Below are positions 12,988-39,098 of a stretch of DNA of 64,000 nt, piece after piece; the stretch's first letter is position 1, and the number at the start of each line of letters is the position of its first letter. Below the pieces are notes generated by a model. The model saw only the letters and a program-made list of their open reading frames with translations, ran no database searches and had not been told where the DNA came from. The DNA lies in the NCBI RefSeq assembly GCF_011045215.1, contig NZ_CP049201.1, one strand, 5' to 3'. Both the position numbers and the translations under genes were made by a program. The DNA is from Escherichia coli (lineage in GTDB: Bacteria; Pseudomonadota; Gammaproteobacteria; Enterobacterales; Enterobacteriaceae).

Positions 12988-13182
12988 TTTTTGGTCCTTC
13001 TCTGGTGTTGTTTGGGAAGTGTAGAGCATGGCAGGGCGGGGTGCCTGGAGTGTGACAAAGGTTACACATCGCTGTATGCAATGCTGAAAATTTCAGCACT
13101 TAGCGAGGTGCGAGCAAGCTGGCGCTTGCATGGTGGCGTGCGACAGGTATAATCCACAACGTTTTCCGCATACCTCTTCAGT

Positions 13183-13267
13183 GCCGAAGTGGCGAAATCG
13201 GTAGACGCAGTTGATTCAAAATCAACCGTAGAAATACGTGCCGGTTCGAGTCCGGCCTTCGGCACCA
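13183..13267 (+). tRNA. leuX: tRNA-Leu (anticodon CAA)
   Basis: 85-nt sequence GCCGAAGTGGCGAAATCGGTAGACGC...TTCGAGTCCGGCCTTCGGCACCA with CAA anticodon loop, long variable arm and encoded CCA end. Confidence 0.93.
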
Positions 13268-13456
13268 TAAAAAGCTTTTTTCAAGTCTACCAACGTCTAC
13301 TTTAGTCCATAAAAACAGTAAGTTAAGCAGAGTTTTGGCCTTTCTTAGTCTGTTCACGTCTACTTACTTCTATCCACATATACCAACGAATGATGGTATA
13401 ACTGGTGGTATCTTCGGTTCGATTGATTTTGATACCAACAGCGGAGGTATCAACTG

Positions 13457-14707
13457 ATGGCACTTACTGATATCAAAGTTAGGACTACCAAGCCCTCCGA
13501 CAAACCTTTCAAACTCACAGATGGGCAGGGTATGCACCTGCTGATCAACCCCAATGGTTCAAAATACTGGCGACTCCAATACCGTTTCGATGGCAAACAG
13601 AAAGTTTTAGCATTGGGTGTTTATCCAATGGTCTCTCTTGGTGAAGCTCGCAGGAAACGAGATGAGGCTAAAAAGTTGGTATCTGATGGTATCGACCCTT
13701 CCGAGAAGAAAAAGGCAGACAAGATCGAGCAGAGCGAAGCTCTTACTTTTGAATCTGTTGCCAGGGACTGGCATAAGGCTTGTAAAAGGAAATGGTCAGA
13801 TTCCCATAGCGAGAGAGTTCTAAAAAGCATGGAAGATGGTCTCTTTACTGCTCTTGGTAAAAGAAAAATATCCGAGCTTAATACCAGAGATCTTCTTGCC
13901 CCTATCAAGGCTGTTGAAGCTTCTGGGCGACTGGAAGTTGCTTCCCGCCTACAGCAAAGAACAACGGCAGTGATGCGATATGCTGTCCAGAACGGGCTGA
14001 TAGATTACAACCCTGCCCAGGAGATGGCAGGAGCTATTGCAGTAGCTAAAAGAGTCCACAGGCCAGCTTTGCCATTCGAACGATTCTCAGAACTTTTAGA
14101 ACGAATTGATAGTTTCAAGGGTAGAAAACTCACGAAGTTAGCCGTAAAGCTGACATTGCTCATTTTCATTCGTTCCAGTGAACTTAGGTTTGCTCGTTGG
14201 TCAGAGATAGATTTCGACAATGCCATGTGGACTATCCCTGGGGAACGTGAGCCATTGCCAGGGGTCAAACATTCTCATCGAGGCTCAAAAATGAAGACAC
14301 CACACCTCGTGCCGTTAAGTCGCCAGGCTATAGAACTCCTCAAAGCTATCAAAGAAATCAGCGGTGAATGTGAACTTGTATTCATTGGTGATCATGATTT
14401 TAGAAAGCCTATGAGTGAAAACACGGTAAACAAGGCTTTAAGGTCTATGGGCTACGACACTACGGTTGAAGTATGTGGACATGGTTTTCGTGCGATGGCA
14501 TGTAGTGCGTTGATCGAATCGGGAAAATGGTCAAGGGATGCTGTTGAACGGCAGATGAGCCACCAAGAGCGAAACTCCGTTCGTGCTGCCTACATTCATA
14601 AAGCAGAACACCTTGATGAAAGAAGGCTTATGTTGCAGTGGTGGGCTGATTACCTTAATGCCTTGAAAGATAGGTTTATCAGTCCCTTTGATTTTACAAC
14701 AAAGTAG
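13457..14707 (+). CDS. P4-family tyrosine integrase
   Basis: 416-aa ORF adjacent to the tRNA; N-terminal KPFKLTDGQGMHLLINPNGSKYWRLQYRFDGK arm-binding region and a C-terminal catalytic domain typical of P4-like integrases. Confidence 0.9.
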   Translation: MALTDIKVRTTKPSDKPFKLTDGQGMHLLINPNGSKYWRLQYRFDGKQKVLALGVYPMVSLGEARRKRDEAKKLVSDGIDPSEKKKADKIEQSEALTFESVARDWHKACKRKWSDSHSERVLKSMEDGLFTALGKRKISELNTRDLLAPIKAVEASGRLEVASRLQQRTTAVMRYAVQNGLIDYNPAQEMAGAIAVAKRVHRPALPFERFSELLERIDSFKGRKLTKLAVKLTLLIFIRSSELRFARWSEIDFDNAMWTIPGEREPLPGVKHSHRGSKMKTPHLVPLSRQAIELLKAIKEISGECELVFIGDHDFRKPMSENTVNKALRSMGYDTTVEVCGHGFRAMACSALIESGKWSRDAVERQMSHQERNSVRAAYIHKAEHLDERRLMLQWWADYLNALKDRFISPFDFTTK

Positions 14708-14794
14708 CTTGATCAACGATTAACTATCCACTGGCATAGCCGTGTGATATGATTACAATGGCTATATTTTTAATTTAAATTTAATAGGTAAAAA

Positions 14795-15934
14795 ATGTCC
14801 ACAATTAACCCCGCAATTTTTTCTTTTTTCTCTGGTTCAGGATTTCTTGATCTTGGATTTGAAAAAAATGGTTATGAAGTGGTTTTCGTGAATGAATACC
14901 ATGCTCCGTTTATGGATGCATATAAACATTCGAGGAAAAAATTAAATATAGCACCACCTCGTTTTGGGTATGCAGAGTGCAGTATTGAAGATGTAGAACA
15001 TGAAAAAATTAAGTCTTCTATGCTTCAACTTAAAAATGAGGGGCGATTGACTGGATTTATTGGTGGTCCACCATGCCCGGATTTCTCTGTAGCGGGTAAA
15101 AATAAAGGTCGAGATGGTGAAAACGGTCGGCTTTCACAAAGCTATATTGATATCATTCTTGAAATGAAACCAGATTTCTTTCTTTTTGAGAATGTTAAAG
15201 GTCTATACCGTACCAGTAAACATAGGGAATTTTTTGACCATTTAAAAACTCAATTAGAATCGGTTGGTTATTGTTTGCATGAAAAACTAATAAATTCTAT
15301 TGAATATGGTGCTCCTCAAGATAGGCAACGAATCATATTGATTGGTTTCCTTGATGAAAAATATGCAAGCCAATTCAATTGGGGGCAAAGAGTCTACCCT
15401 GAAAGAACTGCATTTGAATATAAATGGCCGACGACAAACCAATTTTCAGAAAACACTTCTGTTATAAAACCAAAGGGTATCCCAGAAGAGTTAACAGTAG
15501 AGCATTGGTTCAAGAAAAACCAGGTTGATAATCATCCAAATGCAAAGCATGTATTCGCGGCAAGAGCAGGGCTTGCGAGGTTTTTGACTGTCGAAGAAGG
15601 GGATGATAGTAAAAAATCCTATAAAAGGTTACATAGATGGAGATTTTCACCAACTGCTGCTTACGGTAATAATGAGGTACATTTACATCCTTATAAACCA
15701 AGAAGAATTACTGTTGCCGAAGCATTAGCAATTCAGTCTTTACCAAAAGAATTTGAATTACCTGCTTATATGACTCTGTCTAATATGTTTAAAACTGTCG
15801 GTAACGGTGTACCCTACTTAGCAGCGGCCGGTATTGCCAAATCTATTATAGAGCATTTAGGAATCGAATATGAGAGTAACTGCGGCGAACTTAGCACAGG
15901 CGATTGCCAATCTACCAAGAAACACGCAGTTTAA
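14795..15934 (+). CDS. DNA (cytosine-5)-methyltransferase
   Basis: Motif I FSGSGF, motif IV GGPPCPDFS, motif VI ENV and motif VIII QDRQR, in the canonical order. Confidence 0.85.
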   Translation: MSTINPAIFSFFSGSGFLDLGFEKNGYEVVFVNEYHAPFMDAYKHSRKKLNIAPPRFGYAECSIEDVEHEKIKSSMLQLKNEGRLTGFIGGPPCPDFSVAGKNKGRDGENGRLSQSYIDIILEMKPDFFLFENVKGLYRTSKHREFFDHLKTQLESVGYCLHEKLINSIEYGAPQDRQRIILIGFLDEKYASQFNWGQRVYPERTAFEYKWPTTNQFSENTSVIKPKGIPEELTVEHWFKKNQVDNHPNAKHVFAARAGLARFLTVEEGDDSKKSYKRLHRWRFSPTAAYGNNEVHLHPYKPRRITVAEALAIQSLPKEFELPAYMTLSNMFKTVGNGVPYLAAAGIAKSIIEHLGIEYESNCGELSTGDCQSTKKHAV

Positions 15935-16946
15935 TTATGTAAATGTGCGAAATTCGGGAAGAATCATTGTAACGAATGTTCAACTTCCCGAAGGCCCAAT
16001 AGAATTCAAAAGATTCGATCCAAAAAAGGGTGAGACACTGCATAGTTCTAAATCGGAAAGCATCTCCACACAAATGTTGTGGAGATTGGCTAATGCTTTA
16101 CAGGAAGATGTCCCTGTCAATTTGGATCGTATTTTTGGTGCAAGCTATAATACACGTGCTGTTCTCGAAAGCCTTTTGGCCCATACTCCTGAGTTTTATT
16201 GGTGTAAGCTTGATCGCCTTGAGGTAATGAACACTCAGAAAAATATTAAAAAAGGTCACAAGCACCTTATTTATAGACCAAATGACCCACATGAAAATGG
16301 TGTAGCAATAGAACATACTACTAATGTTATAATTTCTGAAATGAATTTAGATGTTGTCCATCAATCAGTTGATATAGAGACAATCTTACCTACTAAAGGA
16401 ATGACGATTGAGGAAAAAAGACGTCATGCACAAATTCAAATCTCATTAGTAAAAATAGGTCATTACTTAGGTTATCGGACATGGGTTGCAGCAAATGATC
16501 GTGGCCTCCAATATAATGGAAAATCTATAGCCCAAATGGATGGGGTCATAGATAATTTAAGAAATGAACAAGTGCTTCAATCATATGATAAAGCTATCAA
16601 AGAAGCTCGGCTTATAGATTGTATTTGGTTTCGAAATGGAAAATTAATGCCTGCAGTTATGGAGATTGAGCATAGCACTGGTATTAAAAGTGGTTTGGTA
16701 AGGATGAAACAATTTTATGATTATGCACCACAGTTAAAAAATATACGTTGGACCGTTGTGGCACCTGACGAATATAGAAATAAAGTTATAGAGTTTTCTA
16801 ATATGCCACAATTTAAAGAATTAGATACTCGATTCTTCCCCTATTCTGCTGTAGAGGAACTCTATTCATTATGTGCAAGAAGGAATCCTCAAGGAATTAC
16901 AGACGATTTCCTTGATGCATTCATGGAAAAGTGTGTGACACATTAA
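15870..16946 (+). CDS. Hypothetical protein, candidate restriction endonuclease partner of the methyltransferase
   Basis: 358-aa ORF overlapping the methyltransferase 3' end by 65 nt on the same strand; assignment by context only, no motif recognised. Confidence 0.45.
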   Translation: MRVTAANLAQAIANLPRNTQFNYVNVRNSGRIIVTNVQLPEGPIEFKRFDPKKGETLHSSKSESISTQMLWRLANALQEDVPVNLDRIFGASYNTRAVLESLLAHTPEFYWCKLDRLEVMNTQKNIKKGHKHLIYRPNDPHENGVAIEHTTNVIISEMNLDVVHQSVDIETILPTKGMTIEEKRRHAQIQISLVKIGHYLGYRTWVAANDRGLQYNGKSIAQMDGVIDNLRNEQVLQSYDKAIKEARLIDCIWFRNGKLMPAVMEIEHSTGIKSGLVRMKQFYDYAPQLKNIRWTVVAPDEYRNKVIEFSNMPQFKELDTRFFPYSAVEELYSLCARRNPQGITDDFLDAFMEKCVTH

Positions 16947-17083
16947 TCCTTCATAATCAGTTACCGGAGCAAATTACTTTTCTCCGGTTGGTTAACTGAA
17001 TATTAGTATTAAAATCTGATGGTGTTTATTTTATAAATATCAAATGTAATGGTATTTTCAATAATTATATCTAAGAGCGGTTT

Positions 17084-17893
17084 ATGAGAGTAATTAGCCC
17101 CTTTGAGGAATTGAAGAACTGGTTTAATCTTGATAACTATGAACCGATAAAATCGTTTACAATCAAGGAACTACATAGAGAGATTGTCTTTAGAGAAGCG
17201 ATTTTCGACAGTGTAAATTTTGGATGGGAAGATGATAATCAAAATTTAAGGTCTATCCTTGAAGGTAATCCTATTTTAAGCAGACAAGATAATAATCATG
17301 GTCATTTTGGCAAGGGCCAAAGACATGTTGCGCAGGTTAGCTTTGGTGATATAAAAAAATTAGAGAATAAGTTGATAATGTTTAGCATGGATTTTTTTGA
17401 AGAAAATGGTGATTTCAAAAAAGAGTTGAAAAAGAAACCAATAACAAAAACTATGAGAGACTTTTTTCTCAACAAAAATAGCAGCAAGATGTATGTATCA
17501 TTTGATTTGGGGTTATCTAGTGATGAGGAAATTATATCAGCCCTGCAAACTATGCTTCCAACTCTAAGGAAAGAATACGAGATTGACCCAGTAAAAACAG
17601 AAAAGATAGGGCTCGCAAAAATAAGAAAACTTGTCGATTACAACATTATTCCTATGATGGACTTACTAATTTGGTCAAAATTCAAAAAAGCAAAAATCTC
17701 AAATATGGTCTTGTCTCGTGTGTTGTATCCTGATTTCACTCACGAGATTAGAGGCGAAGATCACATTAAAGATACAGACAGGCCCATTGCTGAGAAGGCT
17801 TTAAATGGAGAGATAACTCGTAGTTTGGAGTACTTTCTTAGTAAAAACAGTCATCTCATCAACATACCGATTTCAGAACTCGGATCTCTCTAG
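17084..17893 (+). CDS. Hypothetical protein
   Basis: 269-aa AT-rich ORF, no recognisable motif. Confidence 0.5.
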   Translation: MRVISPFEELKNWFNLDNYEPIKSFTIKELHREIVFREAIFDSVNFGWEDDNQNLRSILEGNPILSRQDNNHGHFGKGQRHVAQVSFGDIKKLENKLIMFSMDFFEENGDFKKELKKKPITKTMRDFFLNKNSSKMYVSFDLGLSSDEEIISALQTMLPTLRKEYEIDPVKTEKIGLAKIRKLVDYNIIPMMDLLIWSKFKKAKISNMVLSRVLYPDFTHEIRGEDHIKDTDRPIAEKALNGEITRSLEYFLSKNSHLINIPISELGSL

Positions 17894-18058
17894 CTATAAA
17901 TCATCATGCAATTGTCAAGGGGATGGTGAAAATATTTTTCTTCCCCTAAATTTCTCTCCATTCTTTCCTCATCTAAATTTTCAGTTATCAGCACTCCCTT
18001 CATAGATACAAATCTGTGTGGCTAATATCTCCTTAACGGAAGCGGAGGAGACAGCCAA

Positions 18059-18265
18059 ATGAATACAACCAATCAAAGCTTAATTCGTTTACCAGAAGTC
18101 TTGAAACGAACTGGTTTCGGCAAGGCCTGGATCTATCGTCTGATCAGTGAAGGTCGGTTTCCGGCACCCGTTAAGATCGGAATTCGTGCCGTTGCTTTTG
18201 TCGAGAGTGAAGTTGACGAGTGGATTCTATCAGTTATCGAAACAAACAGAATTAAAGTTGCTTAA
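18059..18265 (+). CDS. alpA: AlpA-family DNA-binding regulator (excisionase-like)
   Basis: 68-aa ORF; LIRLPEVLKRTGFGKAWIYRLISEGRFPAPVKIG is a typical AlpA/MerR-like helix-turn-helix. Confidence 0.8.
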   Translation: MNTTNQSLIRLPEVLKRTGFGKAWIYRLISEGRFPAPVKIGIRAVAFVESEVDEWILSVIETNRIKVA

Positions 18266-18286
18266 TTAAACCTAGGAGAGATTTTT

Positions 18287-18601
18287 ATGAATATCGAAGA
18301 ATTTATGAATGAAGAAAACCATATGTGCAATTTAGGCGAGGATCTTTTTTGCAAGATCTTCGAACCCGGAGCGATTTATGATTTGCCGAATAGCGATTTT
18401 AATAAAGAAATCATTTACTGGCTCAGTCAGTATCTTGTCGGAAATTTGAGACAACCTTTAGACGCGATCTCTGAGCTTGATATTTTCGAGCAGTTTTATG
18501 TTTACGAGACATGGTTCTCGCTAATTAAATGCCCAGATGAAATTAGAAATTTATCGAAACGGATAATTCGATATCAGATTGGGTTAAAAACCATTCTTTG
18601 A
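18287..18601 (+). CDS. Hypothetical protein
   Basis: 104-aa ORF starting 22 nt after alpA. Confidence 0.45.
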   Translation: MNIEEFMNEENHMCNLGEDLFCKIFEPGAIYDLPNSDFNKEIIYWLSQYLVGNLRQPLDAISELDIFEQFYVYETWFSLIKCPDEIRNLSKRIIRYQIGLKTIL

Positions 18602-18732
18602 AAGAACCTATATTTAGTACTATTTTGTAAATTGCATTGTTGAAATGATAGTGCTATTTGCTTTTTGATTTACAAAACATCTTTAACTTCTTTTAAAATA
18701 ATGGGTTAACTATTTTAAGTGAAAAGAAAGGA

Positions 18733-18762
18733 TTATAATATCCCTCTAGAGGGATATTATAA
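18733..18762. promoter_or_regulatory. Perfect 30-bp palindrome upstream of the recombinase trio (candidate operator or recombination core site)
   Basis: ttataatatccctctagagggatattataa is its own reverse complement; lies about 130 bp upstream of the first recombinase gene. Confidence 0.5.
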
Positions 18763-18893
18763 ATTTTCGGCCGGTATGCGTCATTGTAAAAGGGAATAAT
18801 ATTAAATTCAGGAAAATATATTTGTAAATTGCTTATGTTATATGCTTTATTTATTTTCACTGACAATTAAATGTAAATAGAGGCGATATTACT

Positions 18894-20156
18894 TTGAAAT
18901 ATAAAATAAAAAGATTGAAGAATAAAGATGGTATCAGAAGTTGCATTATTATTAATGAGAGCAACGGATTACCCTTGGTTTATTCTAACTTATATATGAG
19001 TGTTATTTCACGAACAAATAGCTATTCATTTTCAACAATGGAAGCAATAGCAAATGCTTTGCTTTTATTTGAAAGATATAATGCTTACATGAATGTGGAT
19101 GTTTTTGATATGGTAAATCCTGACATCGAAAAACTTGTCTCGAACAAAGGATATTTATTCGGGTTAATGAATGCCCTTTCTTACAGAAACGACTTAGAGA
19201 ATGTTACAAGCATTCTTAAAGAACAACATGTCTCTAAAAGAACCCTTTATTTCAAGATAATGACAATTGAAAATTACGTCAAATGGTTTTTTGATAACAT
19301 TGCTATCAATAATATTGATTCTTCTCGTTATGAAGCAATCAGTCGAGCATTTGATTTTATAAAGCCAAGAATAGAGAACGGAAAGAATTACAATATTGAA
19401 AGCGAAAGCAAATCATTGACAAATGAGCAAGTTACAACTTTGACTGATATGGTAAGTGTTAAATCTAAGATTAATCCATTTTCGGAGCATGTAAGGTTTC
19501 GAAATAATCTAATAATTAAAATTTTATTAGAGACAGGTATTAGGGGAGGGGAACTACTTAATATTAAGTTGGTTGATTTTGACTATGTCCACAAAAGTCT
19601 ATGCATAGTAAGAAGGCCAGATGATCAAAACGAACCACGATTAAGGCAACCATTGGTTAAAACTTTAGAAAGAAAAATACCATTGAGTATAGAATTGACT
19701 GAGTTAATACAGAATTATATTAGTGATTTCAGAGGTAAGCAGTGTCATGCAGGGGAGCATGACTATCTGCTTGTTACTCATAGCAGTAAAGGTCAATTAG
19801 GTCATGCATTAACTATTTCAGGTTATCAGAAAATTTTCGAACAAATTAGGAAAAATAGTAATGTTTTGAGCGATATTGTGGGGCATTCGCTAAGACATAC
19901 TTGGAATGTGAAATTCTCAGAAATGATGCTCATGAATTCGAACTCTCAGGAATATATTACTTATGAGAAAGTAAGAAATTATCTTATGGGGTGGAAAAAG
20001 AATAGTACAACCTCAGATATCTATAACCAAGCATTTATAGCACAAGAAAGCCGAAAAATAATGGCTGTTATTAATCCACTCAAAAACATAGTAGAGGACA
20101 AATCCAATGTTTCAAACTCTAAGAAAGCTACAAGAAAGTCAATATTCGGTTTTTGA
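18894..20156 (+). CDS. Tyrosine recombinase-like protein A (first of three tandem genes)
   Basis: 420 aa, probable TTG start; catalytic-domain elements TGIRGGE (Arg box), HSLRHT and a C-terminal Tyr (TSDIY). Confidence 0.75.
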   Translation: MKYKIKRLKNKDGIRSCIIINESNGLPLVYSNLYMSVISRTNSYSFSTMEAIANALLLFERYNAYMNVDVFDMVNPDIEKLVSNKGYLFGLMNALSYRNDLENVTSILKEQHVSKRTLYFKIMTIENYVKWFFDNIAINNIDSSRYEAISRAFDFIKPRIENGKNYNIESESKSLTNEQVTTLTDMVSVKSKINPFSEHVRFRNNLIIKILLETGIRGGELLNIKLVDFDYVHKSLCIVRRPDDQNEPRLRQPLVKTLERKIPLSIELTELIQNYISDFRGKQCHAGEHDYLLVTHSSKGQLGHALTISGYQKIFEQIRKNSNVLSDIVGHSLRHTWNVKFSEMMLMNSNSQEYITYEKVRNYLMGWKKNSTTSDIYNQAFIAQESRKIMAVINPLKNIVEDKSNVSNSKKATRKSIFGF

Positions 20157-21432
20157 AACCAAGGATGGTAATTTCAAAGTGAACTTTTCTTATTCCAAGT
20201 GGAAGATAAGTGAAAGTATAACATTGAACATTGATTCTTTAAGAGTGGTCATCAGTGCATATATACCTATCAAAACCACTTTGGCATATTTCGCTATAAA
20301 TTATAGTGCCAGTTATACTAAGAAAATGTTTTATGCAGTAAAGCATTACATTAAGGCCTGTAATACGAATGATAGCTTGTTTTCTAAAGATTGCATAAAG
20401 TATTACTATAAAGTTGTGAGCTCATTAGATTACACACATGCAGAGACAGTCAAATATTTTTTTATGAAGATGAGTGGTCTTTACCCATCTTTGTTTTCGG
20501 CAGAAGCAATCATATTTTTAGAAAATATTAAAGTTAAAAAAACAAATGCAAACAAGTCTATAAAGACACATGATTATAAAAAAGGTCCCTTTAGTGACTC
20601 GCAATTAAAGGTAATTATAGATTCTGTAGCGATAGCTTATAAGGAAGAAAAGGTAAGTCTGTCAAACTATCTGCTAACCTTCCTTGTTGCATATTCCGGG
20701 CGGCGACCTATGCAAATATCTCAACTTGAAGCTGGTGATCTCTTTGCTTTTAATGGAGAGTACTTTCTCAATATCCCAAGAATTAAACAACGAAATGGAT
20801 ATAGAAAAGAGTTTAGAAAATTACAAATTCCAGAAGAGCTTTTTAGCCAATTGACATATCTCGTTGAAGCTGTGAATTCGCTGGTCAGTGACACATTAAA
20901 AATCGATTTAAGTGAAAAACAAAAGAGAAAACTACCAATTTTTATAAACACATATCCATTCAAAAAAGGATGTGTTGAGCTAAACATGATTGAAAGTGGT
21001 GGATTAAAACTTAACCCCTATGCCATAACACTAAAAATAAGGAACACTATAAATCGTTCAATAAATGAATATCAAGCCTATCTGGGGTGTATAAATTCGC
21101 GCAGATTTAGATATTCATTAGGCACTAAGGTTGCACAATTGGGTTATAGTCCTTCACTGATAGCAAATGTTTTGGACCATTCTTCAATCAATTCTGTTAT
21201 GAGTTATATAGAAAATACAGCGGAAAATGGCAAGAGAATTAATGAAGCTGTAAATGAACTAATGAAGCCACTGGCTAACAAATTTATTGAGGGAAAAGAG
21301 CTTCAGAAAGAGTTAGATTCTTTGAAGCATTTGATAGAAGAATACTGCGGTGGATATAAAACTAACTCTTTTGATAATACAGCAATATCGTTAGTAACTA
21401 ATTCTATCGACGATATGATCAATAGCATTTAA
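20107..21432 (+). CDS. Tyrosine recombinase-like protein B (second of three)
   Basis: 441 aa; AYSGRRPMQISQLE Arg box, box II RRFRYSLGT with Arg in place of the usual first His, and a C-terminal Tyr (VMSYI); GAGGA ribosome-binding site; overlaps gene A by 50 nt. Confidence 0.7.
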   Translation: MFQTLRKLQESQYSVFETKDGNFKVNFSYSKWKISESITLNIDSLRVVISAYIPIKTTLAYFAINYSASYTKKMFYAVKHYIKACNTNDSLFSKDCIKYYYKVVSSLDYTHAETVKYFFMKMSGLYPSLFSAEAIIFLENIKVKKTNANKSIKTHDYKKGPFSDSQLKVIIDSVAIAYKEEKVSLSNYLLTFLVAYSGRRPMQISQLEAGDLFAFNGEYFLNIPRIKQRNGYRKEFRKLQIPEELFSQLTYLVEAVNSLVSDTLKIDLSEKQKRKLPIFINTYPFKKGCVELNMIESGGLKLNPYAITLKIRNTINRSINEYQAYLGCINSRRFRYSLGTKVAQLGYSPSLIANVLDHSSINSVMSYIENTAENGKRINEAVNELMKPLANKFIEGKELQKELDSLKHLIEEYCGGYKTNSFDNTAISLVTNSIDDMINSI

Positions 21433-21444
21433 AAGAAGGATAAA

Positions 21445-23052
21445 GTGATGAAAGAAATCCATGATAAAATGATTAATAACTTCATTATCGCTAATAAGGC
21501 CCATGCGAAAAATTTTGGAAATTTTGAGTGGGATAATTCAAGTTGGGGAGGCGGAATTACATTTTTTAGCGGAATCAAGGTTAGAATGGGGAACAAGAAT
21601 AAGAAATTAATGAATTATAACATTGCAGAGTTCGCAAAAGCATATGTATGGCATGAGTGCTTTCATGATTTATCTGTAGCTTTCAGAGTGCTGAGATTAT
21701 TTAGGATATTAGAAATTGCCATAGGTAAAACAAATAAAGAAGTTAAGATTTCAAGTATAGATCATAAAGTATTAGATGAAGTTATGACTATTGTTCAAGA
21801 AAATTTTGCAATATCCACTTCTTATAAAATATATTTAGATCTTAGGGTATTATGTTCTTTTATGTCTAAGAACGAAATGTTGCCAGAATCCATTACACGA
21901 TGGTCATATCCATTTAAGGCATATGATGCTTACACAAATAGCACAATGGATTCGATGGGAAATTTATCCAATCAGAAAAAACTTCCTGATGAAAAGGCTA
22001 TAGATTTTATTGGTAAAATATTTAGCTCTAATCCAGTTAATGAAAGGGATATATTTACATCTTCTATTTTTGCATTGCTCTTATGTGCTCCATCTCGAAT
22101 TAGTGAAATTATGCTTTTAGAAGAGGACTGTGAAGTTATAGTTGAAGATAGTAATGGCATATCAAGATATGGTTTGCGATTTCTTTCTCTGAAGGGCTTT
22201 GGATACAATACCAAATGGATTCCAGACTGTATGGTTTCTGTAGCTTCAAAGGCTATCATGCGATTGAAAAAACTTACAAGGAATGCAAGGGTTGTTTCTC
22301 GGTTAATAAAAGCAGGGGAAATTAATTTATACGAGTCATTAAACAAAAGTGCGTTTGATTGTTTAACAATTGAAGATCTCCACAAACTTGGCTTTGTTAT
22401 AAATCAATTAAATATCTCCCAAGAAAATCTAAAATTCTTGGCTAAGATAAAACATGGTACAGTCAGTGTAAAAGCATTTTGGATTTATATAGAGCGAAAG
22501 AATGTTAATTCTGAAAATATTAATGCTAATTTATGCTCCATAAATCATAATTTATTGGACTCTATCAAGGGTGCTGATATTTTTACAACAATTAAGGCAT
22601 CTTCAAAGTATTTTAGAGCGGATTTTCGCACCGATAATATGAATAACATATTTCATAGGAATATACATTTTAACTGTGATGGTTCTGTTTTAATTTTCCG
22701 CAGCCATCAAATTAGACATTTACTTAATACTATAGCTCAACGAAGCGTATTGTCAGAGATACAAATTGCCCAATGGTCTGGGAGAAGGAGTGTTAAGCAG
22801 AATTCAGTATATGATCATATGTCTCACAACGAGTTATCAGAACTATCAAGGAAACTATTGAACGGAAACACCTACGAAGAAACAAAAATTTCAGCATCTT
22901 CATTTAATGAACAATCGATTATTATGAATTTGATTAAAGATAAATTTGAAAAACTAGAATTAAAAATCCAAAATTCAGATCCAAGAAAAAGAAAATATAT
23001 TCTGGAAAAAATTAAAGATTTAAGATTGGAAATTGAATACATATTAATGTGA
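21445..23052 (+). CDS. Tyrosine recombinase-like protein C (third of three)
   Basis: 535 aa, GTG start; CAPSRISEI Arg box, HQIRHLL box II and a C-terminal Tyr (NSVYDH). Confidence 0.7.
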   Translation: MMKEIHDKMINNFIIANKAHAKNFGNFEWDNSSWGGGITFFSGIKVRMGNKNKKLMNYNIAEFAKAYVWHECFHDLSVAFRVLRLFRILEIAIGKTNKEVKISSIDHKVLDEVMTIVQENFAISTSYKIYLDLRVLCSFMSKNEMLPESITRWSYPFKAYDAYTNSTMDSMGNLSNQKKLPDEKAIDFIGKIFSSNPVNERDIFTSSIFALLLCAPSRISEIMLLEEDCEVIVEDSNGISRYGLRFLSLKGFGYNTKWIPDCMVSVASKAIMRLKKLTRNARVVSRLIKAGEINLYESLNKSAFDCLTIEDLHKLGFVINQLNISQENLKFLAKIKHGTVSVKAFWIYIERKNVNSENINANLCSINHNLLDSIKGADIFTTIKASSKYFRADFRTDNMNNIFHRNIHFNCDGSVLIFRSHQIRHLLNTIAQRSVLSEIQIAQWSGRRSVKQNSVYDHMSHNELSELSRKLLNGNTYEETKISASSFNEQSIIMNLIKDKFEKLELKIQNSDPRKRKYILEKIKDLRLEIEYILM

Positions 23053-25259: not shown

Positions 25260-26405
25260 CTATAAACGAATTTTTATCGCCTTGTTTAAAGGTTTCATTG
25301 CGTAGATATTTGAGAAGGTCGTGTGTGTTTTGTGAAGAATGGTCTTACCAAAGCTTCTCAGAAGCTCGATGTAATGCTTTATGGAAGCAAGCCACTCTAC
25401 GAATCTGAGATGCTTTTGCCGTTGTACTGCATTTTTTTGAAGAATCTTTCCTACGATTTCGTTTCGTTTGTCTTCTCTAAGCCGTAATTCCAGTTCTGCA
25501 ATTTTTTCAACGATACTTTCCTTTCTCTCAGTGGTTTTCAACACTGTTGCAGGAGCAGGAGCAGCAGGTTGGTCTTTTGTCGATATGTCGCTTCGTAGAG
25601 CTTCTAAGTGGTCGGGGTTGTAGTTAAGCCGATTACTGAGATTTGCCCAGGAGTAGCTCTTGCCCAATTGTGAAGCTTTGAAAGCTATGCCTGTGTATTC
25701 GAAAGAGAAGCCGTTCATTTTACCGGTAGAGGCAATATTGGCCTTCCAAGATACTTCAGCTTCTTCCAGCCTCTTGATAAAAGTTAGAAGGTCCGGCTTA
25801 TCAGATAAACTTTTATCAAGTATCTGCTGCAGAGCTTCTCTTGGTGAAAGCACCCCGGTTCGTTCCGATAGCATTTTCTCATTACGGGACACTCTCTTCC
25901 GCTTCGGTTGTGCTTGCGAGGGGGGAGATGCAGTTTTGGTCACTGTCAGGCCATGAGCGATTTCGAGTTTACTGATGATCTGTGTGCTGATGAGGTTTTC
26001 GTTCCTACCCAAGTAGAGCTTCCCACCATTGAGATCTATGCGACTTGCGATAATGTGTATGTGCTGGCCATCGTCGTCATGAAGCACATAGCAACGAAGG
26101 TGAGTATCCCTGAACCCCATCCTCTTCATGTAGTCATCTGCGATAATGGACCACTGTTCATTCGTTAGTGTTTCACCGTCGGGTAAGCGAAGTGAGTTGT
26201 GCCAAACGGGTTTTGCGACATCTAGGCGAAGATGCTTGGTGCTATCGAATTCAGCGATCATTTCAACGGCTGAATCACTTAACATGTTCCCGCCAATGAC
26301 GACTGGATCGCTTTTGTGGTGTGCTCCCGATTGTAATACATAACGAACAACACCAGCGAAGCTCTTACCCCTCTTGATCTTCCGCATACCCTTCACGAGG
26401 GACAC
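25260..26405 (-). CDS. Relaxase (MobA/VirD2-type mobilisation nuclease)
   Basis: 381 aa; three-histidine motif HDDDGQHIHII typical of the relaxase/mobilisation nuclease domain; overlaps the upstream mobC-like gene. Confidence 0.75.
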   Translation of the reverse strand: MSLVKGMRKIKRGKSFAGVVRYVLQSGAHHKSDPVVIGGNMLSDSAVEMIAEFDSTKHLRLDVAKPVWHNSLRLPDGETLTNEQWSIIADDYMKRMGFRDTHLRCYVLHDDDGQHIHIIASRIDLNGGKLYLGRNENLISTQIISKLEIAHGLTVTKTASPPSQAQPKRKRVSRNEKMLSERTGVLSPREALQQILDKSLSDKPDLLTFIKRLEEAEVSWKANIASTGKMNGFSFEYTGIAFKASQLGKSYSWANLSNRLNYNPDHLEALRSDISTKDQPAAPAPATVLKTTERKESIVEKIAELELRLREDKRNEIVGKILQKNAVQRQKHLRFVEWLASIKHYIELLRSFGKTILHKTHTTFSNIYAMKPLNKAIKIRL

Positions 26406-26885: not shown

Positions 26886-28049
26886 TTAAGGATGATCTAT
26901 TGAAACAAACTTTTGACTAAACTCCAGCCATCTTGCATTATCAACATCCTTCACAAAAGCAATCAGACCTGCGACATGATTGTAAAAGCCAATTGGAGAG
27001 TCAAATTTTTCATGTCTTGCAACTTCTGAGAGACCAAATTTTTTTATTGAGTAAAGGTGGCGTTCAATACGTTTATAAGTTTGTTTAGATAATCGAGGGA
27101 CATTGCCATCAACAAGTAATCCTAAAACTATTTTTTTTGAACCAGGTCCAGCTACTCTTATTTTGCTTACGTTTTCTTTGAAATGGTGCTTACGAATGAT
27201 GCTGATAATGTTATTTTGTATTTTTCCAACCGAAACACCGTCGGGTAGAGTACCACCGCAGGATAATGTTATATCATCAGCATATCGAGTATAAGTGAAG
27301 CCATATTTATTAGCATATTCAGATAGAGAAATATCTAACTTTACAGTGGCTAAATTACTAAGCATTGGGCTACTCGGTGCCCCTTGAGGTAGCACTCCTA
27401 ACGGCCATGGTTCTGATATGTCCCAAAAAAGGCTCTTCTCTTTATTTTGTCCGTAAAGCTTATATTCCTTAGTTGAGTGCTTAGGAACAGAAATTAGAGA
27501 TTGTAAATGTTGTGGTAAACGTATAGTTGTGCATAGCCTTGATAGTTCAAATGCTATTAATGGCCGATATCCAGCATTTTTAAAAACCATATAAACATCA
27601 GATTCATTTATTGAATAAAAGAAATCGGAAATGTCGAATTGGAAGAGCCATTTAGCACCACAATGCTGTTCTGCACATTTTCTGATGCCACCATTAGGAT
27701 GGAAAGCAAAAGAAGTATTATGGGGAACTAACTTTTTTAATATTTCACTATTGATGAAATGCTGTACTTTAAATATCTCGCCAGTTACAGCATGAATATG
27801 GCGTCTTCCACCTGAACGTTTTTTTATAGCAAACATGCGATAATTTGCTGATTCACGGCGGCGTGATACAGTGGATCGTAGCAAGCGATAATCAACACCA
27901 GTAATTTTTGAAAGATGGCGTAATGTAAAAATTACAGGGAGATTATTTTTCTTCAGATTACTTGCATAATTTCTTAAGTTTAGAGCCTGTGTCTTCCCTA
28001 AGGATGACTCTGCATTTTGATAAAGTTGGTGTGCTGACCAGATTTCCAT
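26886..28049 (-). CDS. Reverse transcriptase, retron-type or defence-associated
   Basis: 387 aa; motifs FDISDFFYSI, LPQGAPSSP, catalytic YADD, and a thumb-like KIRVAGPGSKKIVLGLLV; no maturase, endonuclease or other extra domain. Confidence 0.85.
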   Translation of the reverse strand: MEIWSAHQLYQNAESSLGKTQALNLRNYASNLKKNNLPVIFTLRHLSKITGVDYRLLRSTVSRRRESANYRMFAIKKRSGGRRHIHAVTGEIFKVQHFINSEILKKLVPHNTSFAFHPNGGIRKCAEQHCGAKWLFQFDISDFFYSINESDVYMVFKNAGYRPLIAFELSRLCTTIRLPQHLQSLISVPKHSTKEYKLYGQNKEKSLFWDISEPWPLGVLPQGAPSSPMLSNLATVKLDISLSEYANKYGFTYTRYADDITLSCGGTLPDGVSVGKIQNNIISIIRKHHFKENVSKIRVAGPGSKKIVLGLLVDGNVPRLSKQTYKRIERHLYSIKKFGLSEVARHEKFDSPIGFYNHVAGLIAFVKDVDNARWLEFSQKFVSIDHP

Positions 28050-28237
28050 TCACCTATCCTTTGAGCCCAGGGGGCCATCAGTGTCATACATTTTCCGAGT
28101 CCTCGATGGCCGTTAATGTATGACATTGAAGGGCGGCGTAGCCGCCTTTGCGTCAGATCTTTCCAGAGATGTTTCTCCAACATCCCCATCCGTTGTAACA
28201 AAAGCCACAACAGATTCTGTCAAACAAGCGGTGAACT
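28050..28237 (-). ncRNA. Candidate structured non-coding RNA upstream of the reverse transcriptase (possible retron msr-msd)
   Basis: 188-bp intergenic region with an 11-bp perfect stem (28082-28092 with 28115-28125), an interleaved 7-bp stem (28073-28079 with 28105-28111) and a GGCGGC-gta-GCCGCC hairpin (28132-28146). Confidence 0.35.
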
Positions 28238-29458
28238 TCACTCATCATTGTTTAACGGCTGAACGGAGTGCTGATCAGCACACCAAGACTCTGGAATGTA
28301 AAGACCAAAATCCCATACACTATCGTTTTTAACATGCCTAGAATTTACAAGTATGTCAAGTCCGAATTTAGATAATCGTTTTTGAGTTGTCAATAGTCCT
28401 AATGTCTCTGCATATATGAGTAGTTTTTCTACATACGAACAATCAACATTCAAACGTAAGGCAATGCTTTTGTTATCTCTGACACCTCTTTTTATAAGTT
28501 TTAGTAAATTTATAATTTCGGGAGATAAAGATGAATGGGGGGAAGTGTTATGCTTTGTTCCATTTTCTAACAAGGCAAGCAGCCATCCTGGAATTGCTCT
28601 ATCAGGCATTAGTCCTTGCCATTTTTTATTAGAAAACCATAGTATTCCAGGAAGGTTATTAGGGACGCTATGATAAAAAATTATATTAGATAAAACATTA
28701 CCATAGCCAAGACGAGCCCATGGAGGAATTTTGGTTTGATTTTTACAAAGATTGATTATTTCATTATACTGCTCACCCCACCGAGTTTCTAACCAATTTT
28801 CATTATATACGATGTTACTTATGAAATTGATTTTTTCAGATTTTCTATATTTTCTTACTCCATGGTCTGAGCCGCGAATAGTATTGATTATTCTATTTTC
28901 AGAACCTAGTGTTCTGGCGAAAGAAATTAAAGTTAATCTTACTAGTCCTAAACTCCACCAACTTAAAAAGGTAGGGTTATCGAGCATGGCATTAATAAAT
29001 CCGGATACTCTATCACCACTACCAATCGAATCATCAATAAGTAAAAAATCGTTGACTTTAGATTTTTTCAGATCATTGAGTGATGGATGATCTAAAAACA
29101 TAGTTTTATTAGACCGCACAAGGTTTGAAATAATTGAATATACTAAGTCTTCGCTACCTTGCGAATGACCTGGTCTATTAACAACATCACCATTAAGGTC
29201 CCATAATACTTGTTTGTCTGGATCTAATTTGCGAACTGAATAAAGGGCATAATTTTTATTTTTTGGTAAATCAGAAATGCTCTTTTGAAGCCATATGGTA
29301 AACTCATCTCTACTTACAAAAGTTAACTTGCTCAAGATGTTTTTTGCAATCGCTTTTTGGCTGCTATTAAATTGCATAAGCCATTGAGCTATTTCCTGAG
29401 AGGATTCAATTTTTTCTACTGAAAGTATTTTAAATTTAGGTTTGTCTCTTGTTTTCAT
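28238..29458 (-). CDS. Phosphoribosyltransferase-like protein with a C-terminal helix-turn-helix region (candidate effector)
   Basis: 406 aa; PRPP-binding-type motif FLLIDDSIGSGDRVSG in the N-terminal half; HTH-like KSIALRLNVDCSYVEKLLIYAETLGLL near the C-terminus. Confidence 0.65.
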   Translation of the reverse strand: MKTRDKPKFKILSVEKIESSQEIAQWLMQFNSSQKAIAKNILSKLTFVSRDEFTIWLQKSISDLPKNKNYALYSVRKLDPDKQVLWDLNGDVVNRPGHSQGSEDLVYSIISNLVRSNKTMFLDHPSLNDLKKSKVNDFLLIDDSIGSGDRVSGFINAMLDNPTFLSWWSLGLVRLTLISFARTLGSENRIINTIRGSDHGVRKYRKSEKINFISNIVYNENWLETRWGEQYNEIINLCKNQTKIPPWARLGYGNVLSNIIFYHSVPNNLPGILWFSNKKWQGLMPDRAIPGWLLALLENGTKHNTSPHSSLSPEIINLLKLIKRGVRDNKSIALRLNVDCSYVEKLLIYAETLGLLTTQKRLSKFGLDILVNSRHVKNDSVWDFGLYIPESWCADQHSVQPLNNDE

Positions 29459-31528: not shown

Positions 31529-32680
31529 TTAATTTTCAATATCAGGAGTATTAAATGATCCTGTCATAATGGTATACATATCAATTGATTGCTGGTCAAA
31601 GAATCCTTTCGGCCAACTAGAAAGTTTTCCATCTTTGCCAATAGATATCTTTTCTGCAGTAGATTCATTATTCTCATGTGAAATATAAAATAACGAAATT
31701 AGCTCAGGTGAAAAGTCAGGAGATGTTCTTGCTACGACACGGATTCCGTTGAGAAGGTGATCGCTATGAGTTTCTATGAATACCTGTACTCCCGCTTGAG
31801 CAGTGTAAGCTATTAATCTACCCATATAGCTTTGTCCTCTAGGGTGCAAATGGGCTTCCGGGTTTTCTAAAACTACTAATTCGCCCGGTTTTGCTAAAAG
31901 TAATGCTGAAACAATACTCAAAGCATAGCTATAACCAAAACCAATGTTTTTGGGTTTAGTTTGTTTTCCTGACTCAGCCTGTATTGTGTTATAAGCAATG
32001 TTTGCACTAACTTCCAATTTTGGCTGTATTTTATAATTTGGGGATATTTCATCCATCCATGCCTGTATATTATTCGCAACCCTTACATTATTATAATTAT
32101 GATGTATTCTTGGGTCGTCTTTATTTGGATTACCATCTTTCAGTATTAGTCTATCTTGCCTATTCATTATATTGTCTAATACTTCGATGACATATTCACC
32201 TTTTTTCCCCAACCAATCGCTATGAAAATTGTGTTGTGATAAAGAAATATTGTCTCTTGGACCAATACGTTCGGCTTCAATATATTGAAAATTACTTGCA
32301 TGTATAAAGTTTTTAATTGTTTTAATGCTATCCATACCTGAAATACATGGAAGTTCATTACGAAGATTTGCTGAGTCCTCTTGTGTAACCCCCCAACTGA
32401 CTTCACATTCTTTAACTGAAAGAGTGATTTTCAGTTGATCATCATCTGAAATAAAGTCATTAATAATATCGTCAATACGACCAATGTTTATCAGTTCACC
32501 ATTTAACTTTATATCATTTTTACTACTAAAATCAGACTGTAACACCATACCTATGGCTTGCATTACTGTACTCTTACCGACAGAGTTATTACCACAAAAT
32601 ACATTTAGACCTGACAAATCAAAAGATTGCTCTTTGTATGATTTAAAATTTTTGAGTTTTATCGATTTAATAGGGAGCAT
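31529..32680 (-). CDS. ABC-type (AAA_21-like) ATPase
   Basis: Walker A GNNSVGKST near the N-terminus; LENPEAHLHP Walker B/D-loop region and ETHSDHLL H-loop near the C-terminus; ATG sits 3 nt after the upstream gene's stop, with a GAGGG ribosome-binding site. Confidence 0.75.
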   Translation of the reverse strand: MLPIKSIKLKNFKSYKEQSFDLSGLNVFCGNNSVGKSTVMQAIGMVLQSDFSSKNDIKLNGELINIGRIDDIINDFISDDDQLKITLSVKECEVSWGVTQEDSANLRNELPCISGMDSIKTIKNFIHASNFQYIEAERIGPRDNISLSQHNFHSDWLGKKGEYVIEVLDNIMNRQDRLILKDGNPNKDDPRIHHNYNNVRVANNIQAWMDEISPNYKIQPKLEVSANIAYNTIQAESGKQTKPKNIGFGYSYALSIVSALLLAKPGELVVLENPEAHLHPRGQSYMGRLIAYTAQAGVQVFIETHSDHLLNGIRVVARTSPDFSPELISLFYISHENNESTAEKISIGKDGKLSSWPKGFFDQQSIDMYTIMTGSFNTPDIEN

Positions 32681-32682
32681 TA

Positions 32683-34599
32683 TCAATTACCCTCATTAGC
32701 ATTAACAATCTTAATGCCTGTGCTTTGTTCAAGAATTTTCGCAAAAGAATTGAATCTATATAATATAGTTATTTTCTTTCCTGTTGAGGTAGAGATAGAG
32801 TCCTTAAACCCTCGCTCTGCTTCAATGTAAGTCTGTGAATCCCATGTGGCATATTCTTTTGAATTGCTATCAATAGCAGAATAAAGGGTATCAACCAATT
32901 TATCAGAATTTTTCAGCAATAACTCTTCTTGTTCCTCAGTAACATAATAGAAATAGTAAATTATCACTTCATAAAGTTGCTTACTTATAGGTGATGTATT
33001 AGAGCCAATCTCTTTTATGAAAGCTAAATCACCGAAAACATCATAGGCGAGGTTTAAAGCCCTCAAATATTTTCTTTCTATTTGAAGATACTCGTTGCAT
33101 TCATTCGAAATGTACGCACTTCCTAAATCTATTTCTTTTTCGTTTAATAAGTTTAATTTATATAGATTTAAGTTTTCCATGGCTTTTGATAAAAACTTAT
33201 CATAGGAATTAAAATTATAATTTTTAAAGCCAATATTTATAAATGCAAGAGCAGCAAGGCAAAGCTCCATATCCTTTTGTCTATCAGGCTTAACCTTACC
33301 ATGCGTTGCTTGTTTGAATTCGTTTTTGGATGCCAGATACCGTAAAAACTTAACACTTGAACCTTGATTCAGGGCCGAACGAATTTCTTGATCACTTAAC
33401 TTAACACCATATGTATTGATACGGTGGAATAATTCAACTATGAGATCAGTGCTATCTTTATTCATTTCTATAAAGTAAGCCGTGATTTCATATTCTCTTA
33501 TGGCTCTTTGTTCAGTGCGAGTAAGCTCACCAAACTCTTTACCATTTAAATCCTCAAGGATATCAAGTTTAGAAAGTTTAAATTCTCCACTCATAAAATC
33601 ATAAATTGTTGTGATCCGTTGTAAACCATCAACAACGACCCACTTATCTTCTGCGATTCGATTACCAAAATAAAATACAGGAAGTGGGAGTTTTAAGAGA
33701 ATAGACTCGATTAATTTAGACTTCTTCTCATTATTCCAAATACGATCTTTTCTTTGGAAGTCAGGTTGTAGTTCAATATCACCAAAATGAACCCGATCAA
33801 AAATGAGAGATAAAACCGGAGTCTTGGAGGTAATTCTTGCAACACCAAGTTTAGCTTGTAGAGTTTTTAATTCCAAGTTCAACTGTGATGATGTTGTATC
33901 ATTTTCACCCTCATCTACTCCATAAGTATTGGGTGACTCTATAAGTTCTTCTACAGTAGTATTATTACTAATTTTTAATGTTGGCACCTCTATATTATAA
34001 TCAAGAGTCACAACTGAGTTAGCCATATCTGCGGAAAGCTCTTTAAATCTATTAAGAGTAACCTCAACCATTTTTGAAGCAATTTCAGATGGGAATTTCT
34101 TCAAAACTATTTGATAAGCATCATCAAGGCTTTGAACTAATTCAACCTGCTGTTCATAAATTTTCCCAAGATTCAAATTGAGAAAATTATCAATTTTTTT
34201 TCTTAAAACCCTAAATTCAGAGCCTTGAACTTCTGATAATGTCGCTGCTTCATGGACATTATGACTACGCAATAACAGGTGTTTTTTGTTTTCATACTTG
34301 AAATGTTGAATATAGGGTAAGTTAGCAAATATTGTTTCTGGTTGGTTCCTGCTCGAAGAACTACCGTAAAGAACCTGCTCTACATTACAAAAACCTCTAA
34401 TATTTAAATTGCTGTAAATCGATTCAAGCTCTGATAATGAACGTGTTTTAGATTCAGAATTAGAAGAGACTTTATATTTACCGTTTTCACGATCAATGCT
34501 TATAATACATAGTGGAGGCGTAGAAGGATTAATTGGCTGTAGCTGTTTGCCAAAAAGAAGATTTTCGATGTCGTTTAGCACTTGTTCAAAGTTAAGCAT
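32683..34599 (-). CDS. DUF262 (ParB-like nuclease fold) domain protein
   Basis: 638 aa; central QPDFQRKDRIWNNEK...VVDGLQRITTI matches the DUF262 IPxFQR and DGQQR signatures. Confidence 0.7.
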   Translation of the reverse strand: MLNFEQVLNDIENLLFGKQLQPINPSTPPLCIISIDRENGKYKVSSNSESKTRSLSELESIYSNLNIRGFCNVEQVLYGSSSSRNQPETIFANLPYIQHFKYENKKHLLLRSHNVHEAATLSEVQGSEFRVLRKKIDNFLNLNLGKIYEQQVELVQSLDDAYQIVLKKFPSEIASKMVEVTLNRFKELSADMANSVVTLDYNIEVPTLKISNNTTVEELIESPNTYGVDEGENDTTSSQLNLELKTLQAKLGVARITSKTPVLSLIFDRVHFGDIELQPDFQRKDRIWNNEKKSKLIESILLKLPLPVFYFGNRIAEDKWVVVDGLQRITTIYDFMSGEFKLSKLDILEDLNGKEFGELTRTEQRAIREYEITAYFIEMNKDSTDLIVELFHRINTYGVKLSDQEIRSALNQGSSVKFLRYLASKNEFKQATHGKVKPDRQKDMELCLAALAFINIGFKNYNFNSYDKFLSKAMENLNLYKLNLLNEKEIDLGSAYISNECNEYLQIERKYLRALNLAYDVFGDLAFIKEIGSNTSPISKQLYEVIIYYFYYVTEEQEELLLKNSDKLVDTLYSAIDSNSKEYATWDSQTYIEAERGFKDSISTSTGKKITILYRFNSFAKILEQSTGIKIVNANEGN

Positions 34600-38168: not shown

Positions 38169-39098
38169 TCACCCCCTAAAAACCTCATTCCGATGCCACT
38201 CCACAAACCCCTCATAAGGGTAATTTTTACGCACCTGCGGCAACGCAATAGTTTTCCCGTCAAAATCCCAGAATAATCTCTCAACGATCCCTCCGCCGTT
38301 TACCGCATCTGATACCAGTACCCGCATATTTTCGTCCAGGCCAATCGATCCTTTATCAAAGGCTTTATGGTGAATTGCGCAAAGCGCCAGGCCATTAGGA
38401 ATTTCACAAGGACCGCCGTGCTGTTTCCATTTTATATGCGCCGCTTCCAGCGCGACGGTGGTGTCGTCGTGGCGCATATTAAAGCCACATATCGCGCACT
38501 GGTAGTTATAAGCGCGTAATACATTTTTGCGAAATAACGGGTCGCGCTGTTTACGGATTTGCTGGAGATCAAAACCCAGCTCGTCAGCAATTTCTTCCTG
38601 AATACTCTCGGTGAAGTGCGCTTCGAGTATCTGTTGCGCCAGAGTATTGATGAGTTTTTTATTGCCTGTTACCAGGGCGTAGTGCTGTTCATCGAAACCG
38701 CCTGCAACGTGGTATTCGTTCAGTTCCTTCACTGGCGGTTGTCGGCTGCTACCTGCTGTTGAGCAAAGCTCGGCATTGTGTAATTGCCAGAATCCGTCGC
38801 CTTGTAATCGCCAGAACGGCATATCAGGTCGGTACTGTGAACGCTGTGGCCCAAAACGTTCCAGTAAATTGTGCAGAGGTTCGTAGATTTCCGATCCATA
38901 ATCGAAAAGGCGCGGATGCCCATTCAGGTATCCCGCTAATACGTATAGCAGTAACAATGGTTTATGCGGCGCGCGCTGTTCACCCTTGTGCCAGATTTTT
39001 ATATTGGCAATTGCCTGCTGTAGCGATTTACTGGAAGCCATTGATATCCCTGGCAGTGAAATAATTGCGATCATGCTCGCAAATTTTCTGCTGTTCAA
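38169..39098 (-). CDS. HNH endonuclease-domain protein
   Basis: 309 aa; C-terminal YQCAICGF...AAHIKW...ALCAIHH HNH motif; N-terminal domain of about 200 aa unassigned. Confidence 0.7.
   Translation of the reverse strand: MNSRKFASMIAIISLPGISMASSKSLQQAIANIKIWHKGEQRAPHKPLLLLYVLAGYLNGHPRLFDYGSEIYEPLHNLLERFGPQRSQYRPDMPFWRLQGDGFWQLHNAELCSTAGSSRQPPVKELNEYHVAGGFDEQHYALVTGNKKLINTLAQQILEAHFTESIQEEIADELGFDLQQIRKQRDPLFRKNVLRAYNYQCAICGFNMRHDDTTVALEAAHIKWKQHGGPCEIPNGLALCAIHHKAFDKGSIGLDENMRVLVSDAVNGGGIVERLFWDFDGKTIALPQVRKNYPYEGFVEWHRNEVFRG

Follow-up and report, generated by a model that had tools for sequence, protein, structure and literature searches.

A probable NmeDI-family Type II restriction-modification cassette in the leuX island of Escherichia coli

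A probable restriction-modification pair of the NmeDI family

A stretch of 64,000 nucleotides from the Escherichia coli contig NZ_CP049201.1 (the whole of which is referred to as the window) harbors two overlapping genes for a C5 cytosine DNA methyltransferase and a restriction endonuclease of the NmeDI family. The latter is encoded by the second open reading frame (ORF) of the pair, denoted ORF2. It is very probable that the two genes constitute an intact Type II restriction-modification (R-M) system of this family, carried as a defence module on a genomic island. A candidate Type II R-M pair had already been proposed by an earlier, sequence-only reading of the window, and the proposal is now supported by a match of ORF2 to a PADLOC model for Type II endonucleases (PDLC03534), by its assignment to the Pfam family NmeDI_C, and by the pairing of its relatives with a methyltransferase gene in 78 of 80 loci. 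The pair is an ordinary though rare defence module of a family that is already described and curated, as seen from the naming in Pfam, PADLOC, and NCBI. The relevant features of the window are:

14697..17074, plus strand: whole R-M cassette of 2378 bp, missing in E. coli O55:H7 RM12579, the leuX island of which is otherwise homologous
14731..14759, plus strand: weak sigma-70-like promoter match (CTGGCA-17-TACAAT, 9/12 matches), a candidate only, within the 98-nt leader 5' of the methyltransferase gene
14795..15934, plus strand: C5 cytosine DNA methyltransferase gene, 379 amino acids (aa), ATG start, catalytic Cys94 in GGPPCPDFS
15859..15862, plus strand: AGGA, Shine-Dalgarno-like, 7 nt 5' of the endonuclease ATG and within the methyltransferase coding sequence, read directly from the sequence
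15870..15934, plus strand: overlap segment, comprising the last 21 codons and the stop of the methyltransferase gene; the first ~21 codons of the endonuclease gene are read from it in a different frame
15870..16946, plus strand: ORF2, restriction endonuclease gene of the NmeDI family, 358 aa, ATG start
16957..16999, plus strand: stable hairpin, probable transcription terminator of the two-gene unit, with the core CCGGAG...CTCCGG at 16964-16987, 11 nt past the endonuclease stop

The proposed mode of action is as follows. The methyltransferase would produce 5-methylcytosine (m5C) at the target sites of the host, RCCGGB/RCCGGY by analogy with M.NmeDI, and the N-terminal domain of the endonuclease would read the site in its unmethylated form. 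The C-terminal domain, modelled as a PD-(D/E)XK nuclease with the putative catalytic residues D250/E265/E267, may then cut in a Mg-dependent manner. If the analogy with R.NmeDI holds, cleavage would occur at a fixed distance on either side of a palindrome, a behavior denoted as 'symmetric Type IIS', and the enzyme would act as an oligomer with a preference for DNA containing two sites. Both genes are likely to be expressed as one transcription unit, and the pair is presumably active in vivo.

The methyltransferase

The product of the upstream gene matches Pfam PF00145 with its residues 8-352 (E 5e-54, profile positions 3-323 of 324), TIGR00675 dcm (E 6e-48), and the PADLOC model MTase_II PDLC03355 (E 1e-163). 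Its translation contains all ten motifs of C5 methyltransferases in canonical order, among them motif IV with the catalytic Pro-Cys and motif VI with ENV; in the family alignment, the motifs are invariant. These matches and the full motif set agree with the sequence-only reading, which had recognized a C5 methyltransferase from motifs I, IV, VI, and VIII in this order. Six of the motifs read as follows:

Motif I: FSFFSGSGFLDLGF
Motif IV: GGPPCPDFS
Motif VI: FLFENVKGL
Motif VIII: QDRQRIILIGF
Motif IX: RRITVAEALAIQSLP
Motif X: GNGVPY

The same reading had pointed to PCP in place of the more usual PCQ at the catalytic cysteine. All of 19 family members (57-92% identical) show GGPPCPDFS as motif IV, and PCP is thus a trait of the family and not a lesion. 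The nearest solved sequence is M.HaeIII (E 7e-32), with an aligned stretch of residues 8-188 that encompasses motifs I-VIII. The order of the motifs is identical in both enzymes, whereas motif IV of the window copy departs from the usual PCQ, and the variable region between motifs VIII and IX, the usual site of target recognition, finds no match in M.HaeIII. Instead, this putative target-recognition region is nearly invariant among the 19 homologues and contains a family-specific, invariant block, EGDDSKKSYKRLHRWR.SPTAAYGNNEVHLHP.

The endonuclease

ORF2 matches positions 5-350 of the 351-position PADLOC Type II endonuclease model PDLC03534 (E 2e-124). In a large protein database, a 100%-identical protein is named "restriction endonuclease [Escherichia coli]" by NCBI and carries PF27126.1, the family name of which, NmeDI_C, was obtained from the gene tables of two distant homologues. 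The database holds 1644 homologues; all those listed carry PF27126, and the names given to homologues by NCBI and JGI are restriction endonuclease or type II restriction enzyme. Scans of ORF2 against NCBIfam and against a Pfam copy without PF27126 gave no match, and neither the single protein nor a profile of 27 sequences matched any sequence in the PDB. A literature search on the WP accessions and on PF27126 found no paper, and a homologue search seeded with a 351-aa family member gave no Neisseria entry among the best 120.

The AlphaFold model of ORF2 (predicted local distance difference test, pLDDT, 81.8) shows two domains connected by a linker of low confidence (residues 156-165). Modelled alone, the N-terminal 172 residues reach a pLDDT of 91.6. 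This N-terminal domain of ~170 residues has no close solved structural neighbor in comparisons of the predicted model, and its residues ~1-150 represent a putative sequence reader. The C-terminal domain (~175-355) is predicted to adopt the alpha/beta core of restriction endonucleases, with N.BspD6I, SdaI, and FokI as nearest solved folds, and is, according to the model, a cleavage domain of the PD-(D/E)XK type. The sequence-only reading had described ORF2 as a protein of unknown fold without an assignable motif, a view that gives way to the PDLC03534 match, the NmeDI_C assignment, and the modelled PD-(D/E)XK nuclease. It had named the lack of a nuclease fold as an argument against its own proposal and had suggested structure prediction as a check; in the predicted model, the C-terminal half shows a PD-(D/E)XK-like nuclease fold.

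The two halves of the protein are separable. A search of 1.84 billion representative proteins yielded ~60 full-length relatives of ORF2 at E < 1e-30, and several hundred proteins whose similarity is limited to residues ~170-355. This C-terminal domain is also found joined to EVE, TPR, or other N-termini, and 162 plasmid records contain this half alone. ORF2 is therefore modular, with a C-terminal cleavage domain that can be separated from the N-terminal recognition domain. Invariant among the distant relatives of the C-terminal domain are H186, D250, E265, E267, T270, S274, G275, and R278. In the model, one beta strand begins with D250, and the next one ends just before E265-x-E267. On the basis of secondary structure and conservation, and not of a residue-level superposition, D250/E265/E267 can be read as a D...E-x-E variant of the PD-(D/E)XK signature.

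Gene layout and expression

The coordinates of both genes (14795-15934 and 15870-16946) were reproduced exactly in the ORF listing, as was the overlap of 65 nt (15870-15934) on the same strand and in different frames that the sequence-only reading had emphasized. The overlap would lose its significance if the true start of ORF2 were located far downstream, a caveat raised by that reading. The upstream stop, the AGGA, and the conserved N-terminus all argue for the annotated start. An in-frame TAG at 15858-15860, 9 nt 5' of the ORF2 ATG, makes 15870 the earliest possible start codon. An alignment of 27 homologues (51-75% identical) shows conservation from residue 1 on, e.g. at T4, A5, I12, and L15, and this segment is modelled as a confident helix. 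A later start at GTG 15945 was considered and rejected, as it would cut off the N-terminal segment conserved in the 27 homologues and delete the helix. Judged from the sequence, the start at 15870 and the overlap are thus genuine. In the family alignment, the C-terminal tail of the methyltransferase that is encoded by the overlap is variable and absent from some homologues. Since the N-terminus of the endonuclease is conserved, the constraint on the overlap comes mainly from the endonuclease frame.

The start and the ribosome-binding site of the endonuclease gene lie within the end of the methyltransferase gene, so that the nuclease is probably produced from the same transcript, with its translation coupled to that of the methyltransferase. 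The hairpin that follows the endonuclease gene has an RNA folding energy of -16.6 kcal/mol (z = -4.3 versus shuffles). A simple terminator scan did not call it, probably because the loop exceeds the limit of the scan and the U-tract is weak. The cassette contains no gene for a control protein.

Conservation of the pair

The association of the two genes was surveyed with one genome per species in 80 loci harboring full-length relatives of ORF2 (47-100% identity). They stem from Proteobacteria, Bacteroidota, Bacillota, Verrucomicrobia, Elusimicrobia, Acidobacteria, Chloroflexi, and one archaeon (Methanocorpusculum). A methyltransferase homologue is encoded 5' of the endonuclease and on the same strand in 78 of the 80 loci; in the remaining two, the match is located at a contig edge without upstream DNA. 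These methyltransferases are 52-76% identical to the window copy, with the exception of a copy from Kosakonia (99.7%). In all but two of the 78 loci the methyltransferase gene immediately precedes the endonuclease gene and usually overlaps it, its stop lying anywhere from 5 nt 5' to 104 nt 3' of the endonuclease start. The genes 3' of the endonuclease vary; a Vsr gene is found in 5 of 74 loci, and Bacillus cereus harbors a MutH-like gene at this position.

Such a constant order of the two genes bears on the question of whether ORF2 is the cognate partner of the methyltransferase at all. It might instead be a modification-dependent (Type IV) nuclease or a component of another defence system, e.g. 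Druantia type II. A relation to Druantia is suggested by the match of the methyltransferase to the PADLOC model DruM2 (E 5e-142), and one to Type IV enzymes by the fusion of the C-terminal nuclease domain to EVE domains, readers of modified bases that are typical of Type IV systems. Yet MTase_II is the best model for the methyltransferase and scores above DruM2, ORF2 itself has no EVE domain, and the near-universal adjacency of methyltransferase and endonuclease genes, in this order and with overlap, fits a cognate pair. Moreover, an enzyme cutting modified DNA would be incompatible with the adjacent methyltransferase unless their specificities differ. This alternative is therefore highly improbable. 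A Druantia type II system was rejected, as a scan of five ORFs, namely ORF2 and four of the six that come next downstream, gave no match to any Druantia protein such as DruE, DruF, or DruG.

Both genes of the R-M pair are under purifying selection, as judged by sequence comparison. Relative to the alleles of E. coli IAI1 and Kosakonia, the ratio of nonsynonymous to synonymous differences (pN/pS) amounts to 0.03-0.05 for the methyltransferase and 0.02-0.04 for the endonuclease; relative to homologues of 74-76% identity, it is 0.2 for both genes. ORF2 is full length in every copy examined, and the columns invariant among the 27 aligned endonucleases are, by construction, kept in the window copy. 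These data also speak to the possibility that only the methyltransferase is still active and the endonuclease has decayed or been silenced, which would leave the locus with an orphan methyltransferase. Resident R-M systems often lose their endonuclease gene or carry it in an inactive form, and RefSeq lists ORF2 as a "hypothetical protein" in 12 complete genomes. Decay is hard to reconcile with the uniformly full-length ORF2 and its retained family-invariant columns, with an endonuclease pN/pS between diverged alleles that equals that of the methyltransferase, and with an intact ribosome-binding site and upstream stop. An orphan methyltransferase is thus regarded as improbable, if somewhat less so than a Type IV or Druantia origin of ORF2.

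Comparison with NmeDI and other restriction enzymes

The prototype of the family, R.NmeDI from Neisseria meningitidis, comprises 351 aa and is encoded on the same strand as nmeDIM and 3' of it, its first nine codons forming the overlap of the two genes (Kwiatek & Piekarowicz 2007, PMC2095814). Its target is RCCGGY, with cleavage on either side, (12/7)RCCGGY(7/12), and a 25-bp fragment with 5-nt 5' overhangs is thereby set free; the enzyme is a tetramer, prefers DNA with two sites in cis, and needs solely Mg2+ (PMC2095814). In E. coli, lambda is restricted 1000-fold by R.NmeDI in combination with M.NmeDI, which is specific for RCCGGB (PMC2095814). R.NmeDI is regarded as a symmetric Type IIS enzyme by Pingoud et al. 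(PMC4081073).

The pair in the window shares with NmeDI the succession of a C5 methyltransferase gene and an overlapping endonuclease gene for ~350 aa on the same strand, the Pfam family NmeDI_C in the endonuclease, the lack of a control (C) protein, and the constitution of a stand-alone two-protein Type II system. The length of the PADLOC model PDLC03534, 351 positions, equals that of R.NmeDI. The comparison with R.NmeDI is based on its published description (length, gene order, and family name). Differences concern the overlap, 65 nt here and nine codons in NmeDI, and the genomic site, the E. coli leuX island here and the region between pheS and pheT in the meningococcus.

Some observations count against an intact system of the NmeDI type. 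An accessory Vsr gene (V.NmeDI) belongs to the meningococcal system, whereas this cassette has none: it ends at 17074 and the DUF6387 gene comes next. Homology to R.NmeDI over the full length, and with it a shared specificity, is deduced indirectly from the name of PF27126, a family restricted to the C-terminal domain, from the 351-position PADLOC model, and from the identical gene organization. The canonical lysine of the catalytic motif is replaced by Glu, and model confidence reaches its minimum at residues 267-269; BamHI also has a Glu at the lysine position of its PD-(D/E)XK motif. Finally, the promoter scan revealed no excess of sigma-70-like sites over shuffled sequences in the region, so that the match at 14731-14759 is a candidate only.

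By analogy, it appears rather likely that the pair also shares the specificity of NmeDI, i.e. the target RCCGGY; the near-invariance of the putative target-recognition region of the methyltransferase across the family lends this indirect support. The window contains 57 RCCGGY sites, of which 7 fall into 13000-39000, a stretch spanning the island, and one (15827) into the cassette, numbers that are uninformative on specificity. Provided that the R-M pair is real, it could also be a genuine system of NmeDI-like architecture with another recognition sequence, sharing only the C-terminal cleavage domain with NmeDI. PF27126 covers this domain only, no N-terminal family is recorded for any homologue, and recombination of the C-terminal domain with other N-termini is evident. 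The PADLOC model of R.NmeDI length matches ORF2 from end to end, and size, gene order, and overlap are as in NmeDI, which makes a deviating target the less likely case, though a tenable one. Against it stand also full-length-type homologues from Acidobacteria and Gammaproteobacteria, reported in 2007 to be paired with methyltransferases predicted for RCCGGB (PMC2095814).

With regard to architecture, FokI, N.BspD6I/R.BspD6I, and SdaI-like enzymes are comparable to ORF2 in that an N-terminal DNA reader is combined with a C-terminal PD-(D/E)XK domain, and they are the best structural neighbors of the latter. However, they show no detectable sequence similarity to ORF2, possess 558-587 aa compared with the 358 aa of ORF2, and harbor a catalytic motif of the type D...D/E-x-K instead of D...E-x-E. 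Unlike these enzymes, ORF2 has an N-terminal domain without a close solved relative and a target that is presumably palindromic, so that one methyltransferase suffices. Cfr10I, BsrFI, Bse634I, and NgoMIV, which recognize RCCGGY or GCCGGC, differ in being single-domain enzymes that cut within the site, and NmeDI displays no significant sequence homology to this group (PMC2095814).

With the assignment, a gene still carried by RefSeq as a "hypothetical protein" in IAI1 and other complete genomes receives an explanation. The assignment also predicts an additional m5C pattern, probably at RCCGGY, in the few carrier strains, several enterotoxigenic E. coli (ETEC) isolates included. Such a pattern could affect transformation, phage host range, and the interpretation of methylomes. 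Of wider interest is the N-terminal reader, as the NmeDI family is without a solved structure and the predicted domain looks unlike any solved fold.

The cassette and the leuX island

The genes lptG, yjgR, ahr, and tRNA-Leu(CAA) that flank the region are about 98% identical to E. coli. 3' of the tRNA gene, a P4-type integrase gene is followed by about 25 kb with a guanine plus cytosine (G+C) content of 31-40%. BLASTN comparison of the window with E. coli O55:H7 RM12579 revealed homology over 13101-14696 (91%) and again over 17075-18198 (87%). Just 113 bp extend from the integrase gene to the DUF6387 gene in O55:H7, compared with the 2378 bp found here, and the R-M pair is thus a discrete cassette. 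The variable leuX island of E. coli thereby gains one more defence module.

The cassette is present in 12 of 5426 complete E. coli genomes, among them IAI1 and several ETEC strains, with ORF2 designated "hypothetical protein" by RefSeq. One plasmid of Enterobacter cloacae carries a full-length copy with 72% identity. A record of Kosakonia cowanii 282A-S69 contains the R-M proteins at 99.7% identity beside tRNA-Leu, with 95% identical DNA over 5.5 kb, which points either to an island that has recently moved between enterobacterial genera or to a mislabelled assembly.

The low-G+C region at 13183-38000, adjoining tRNA-Leu(CAA) leuX, is a mobilizable element rich in defence genes. Besides the cassette, it carries the following genes:

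13457-14707: P4-type integrase
17084-17893: DUF6387 protein gene (E 2e-74), directly 3' of the cassette, part of the island backbone and also present in O55:H7, which lacks the R-M pair
18059-18265: AlpA-like regulator
25260-26405, minus strand: MobA/VirD2 relaxase

At 18894-23052, three ORFs (420, 441, and 535 aa) follow each other on the same strand, the first overlapping the second. Both of these match Pfam Phage_integrase and are tyrosine recombinases according to RefSeq, which lists the third as hypothetical. The layout resembles a 'recombinase in trio' arrangement and is conserved in the island of O55:H7.

The island of O55:H7 RM12579 has the same backbone with other cargo. No methyltransferase-endonuclease cassette is found beside its integrase gene, and its positions 14069-19551 encode an HsdM-like methyltransferase together with two unknown genes, as well as KwaAB (Kiwa). 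Cargo has thus been swapped at more than one position in this family of islands.

Further genes in the window include candidates for defence. On the minus strand at 26886-29458, a reverse transcriptase (387 aa, RVT_1) adjoins a protein of 406 aa with PRTase-CE and winged helix-turn-helix (wHTH) domains; from the protein genes alone, this looks like a retron-type defence pair. At 31529-34599, also on the minus strand, the genes for a GmrSD_N (DUF262) protein and an AAA_15/DUF3696 ATPase form a pair. The same pair is encoded directly 5' of an NmeDI-like R-M pair in a Roseobacter genome (1-2520 of that locus), and a GmrSD_N gene lies near an NmeDI-like R-M pair in Bacillus cereus (626-1687 of that locus), which suggests that this Type IV-like GmrSD_N module is recurrently co-located with systems of the NmeDI family. 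At the far edge of the low-G+C region, where the G+C content rises again, the minus strand (38169-39098) encodes a protein of 309 aa with an HNH_2 endonuclease domain.

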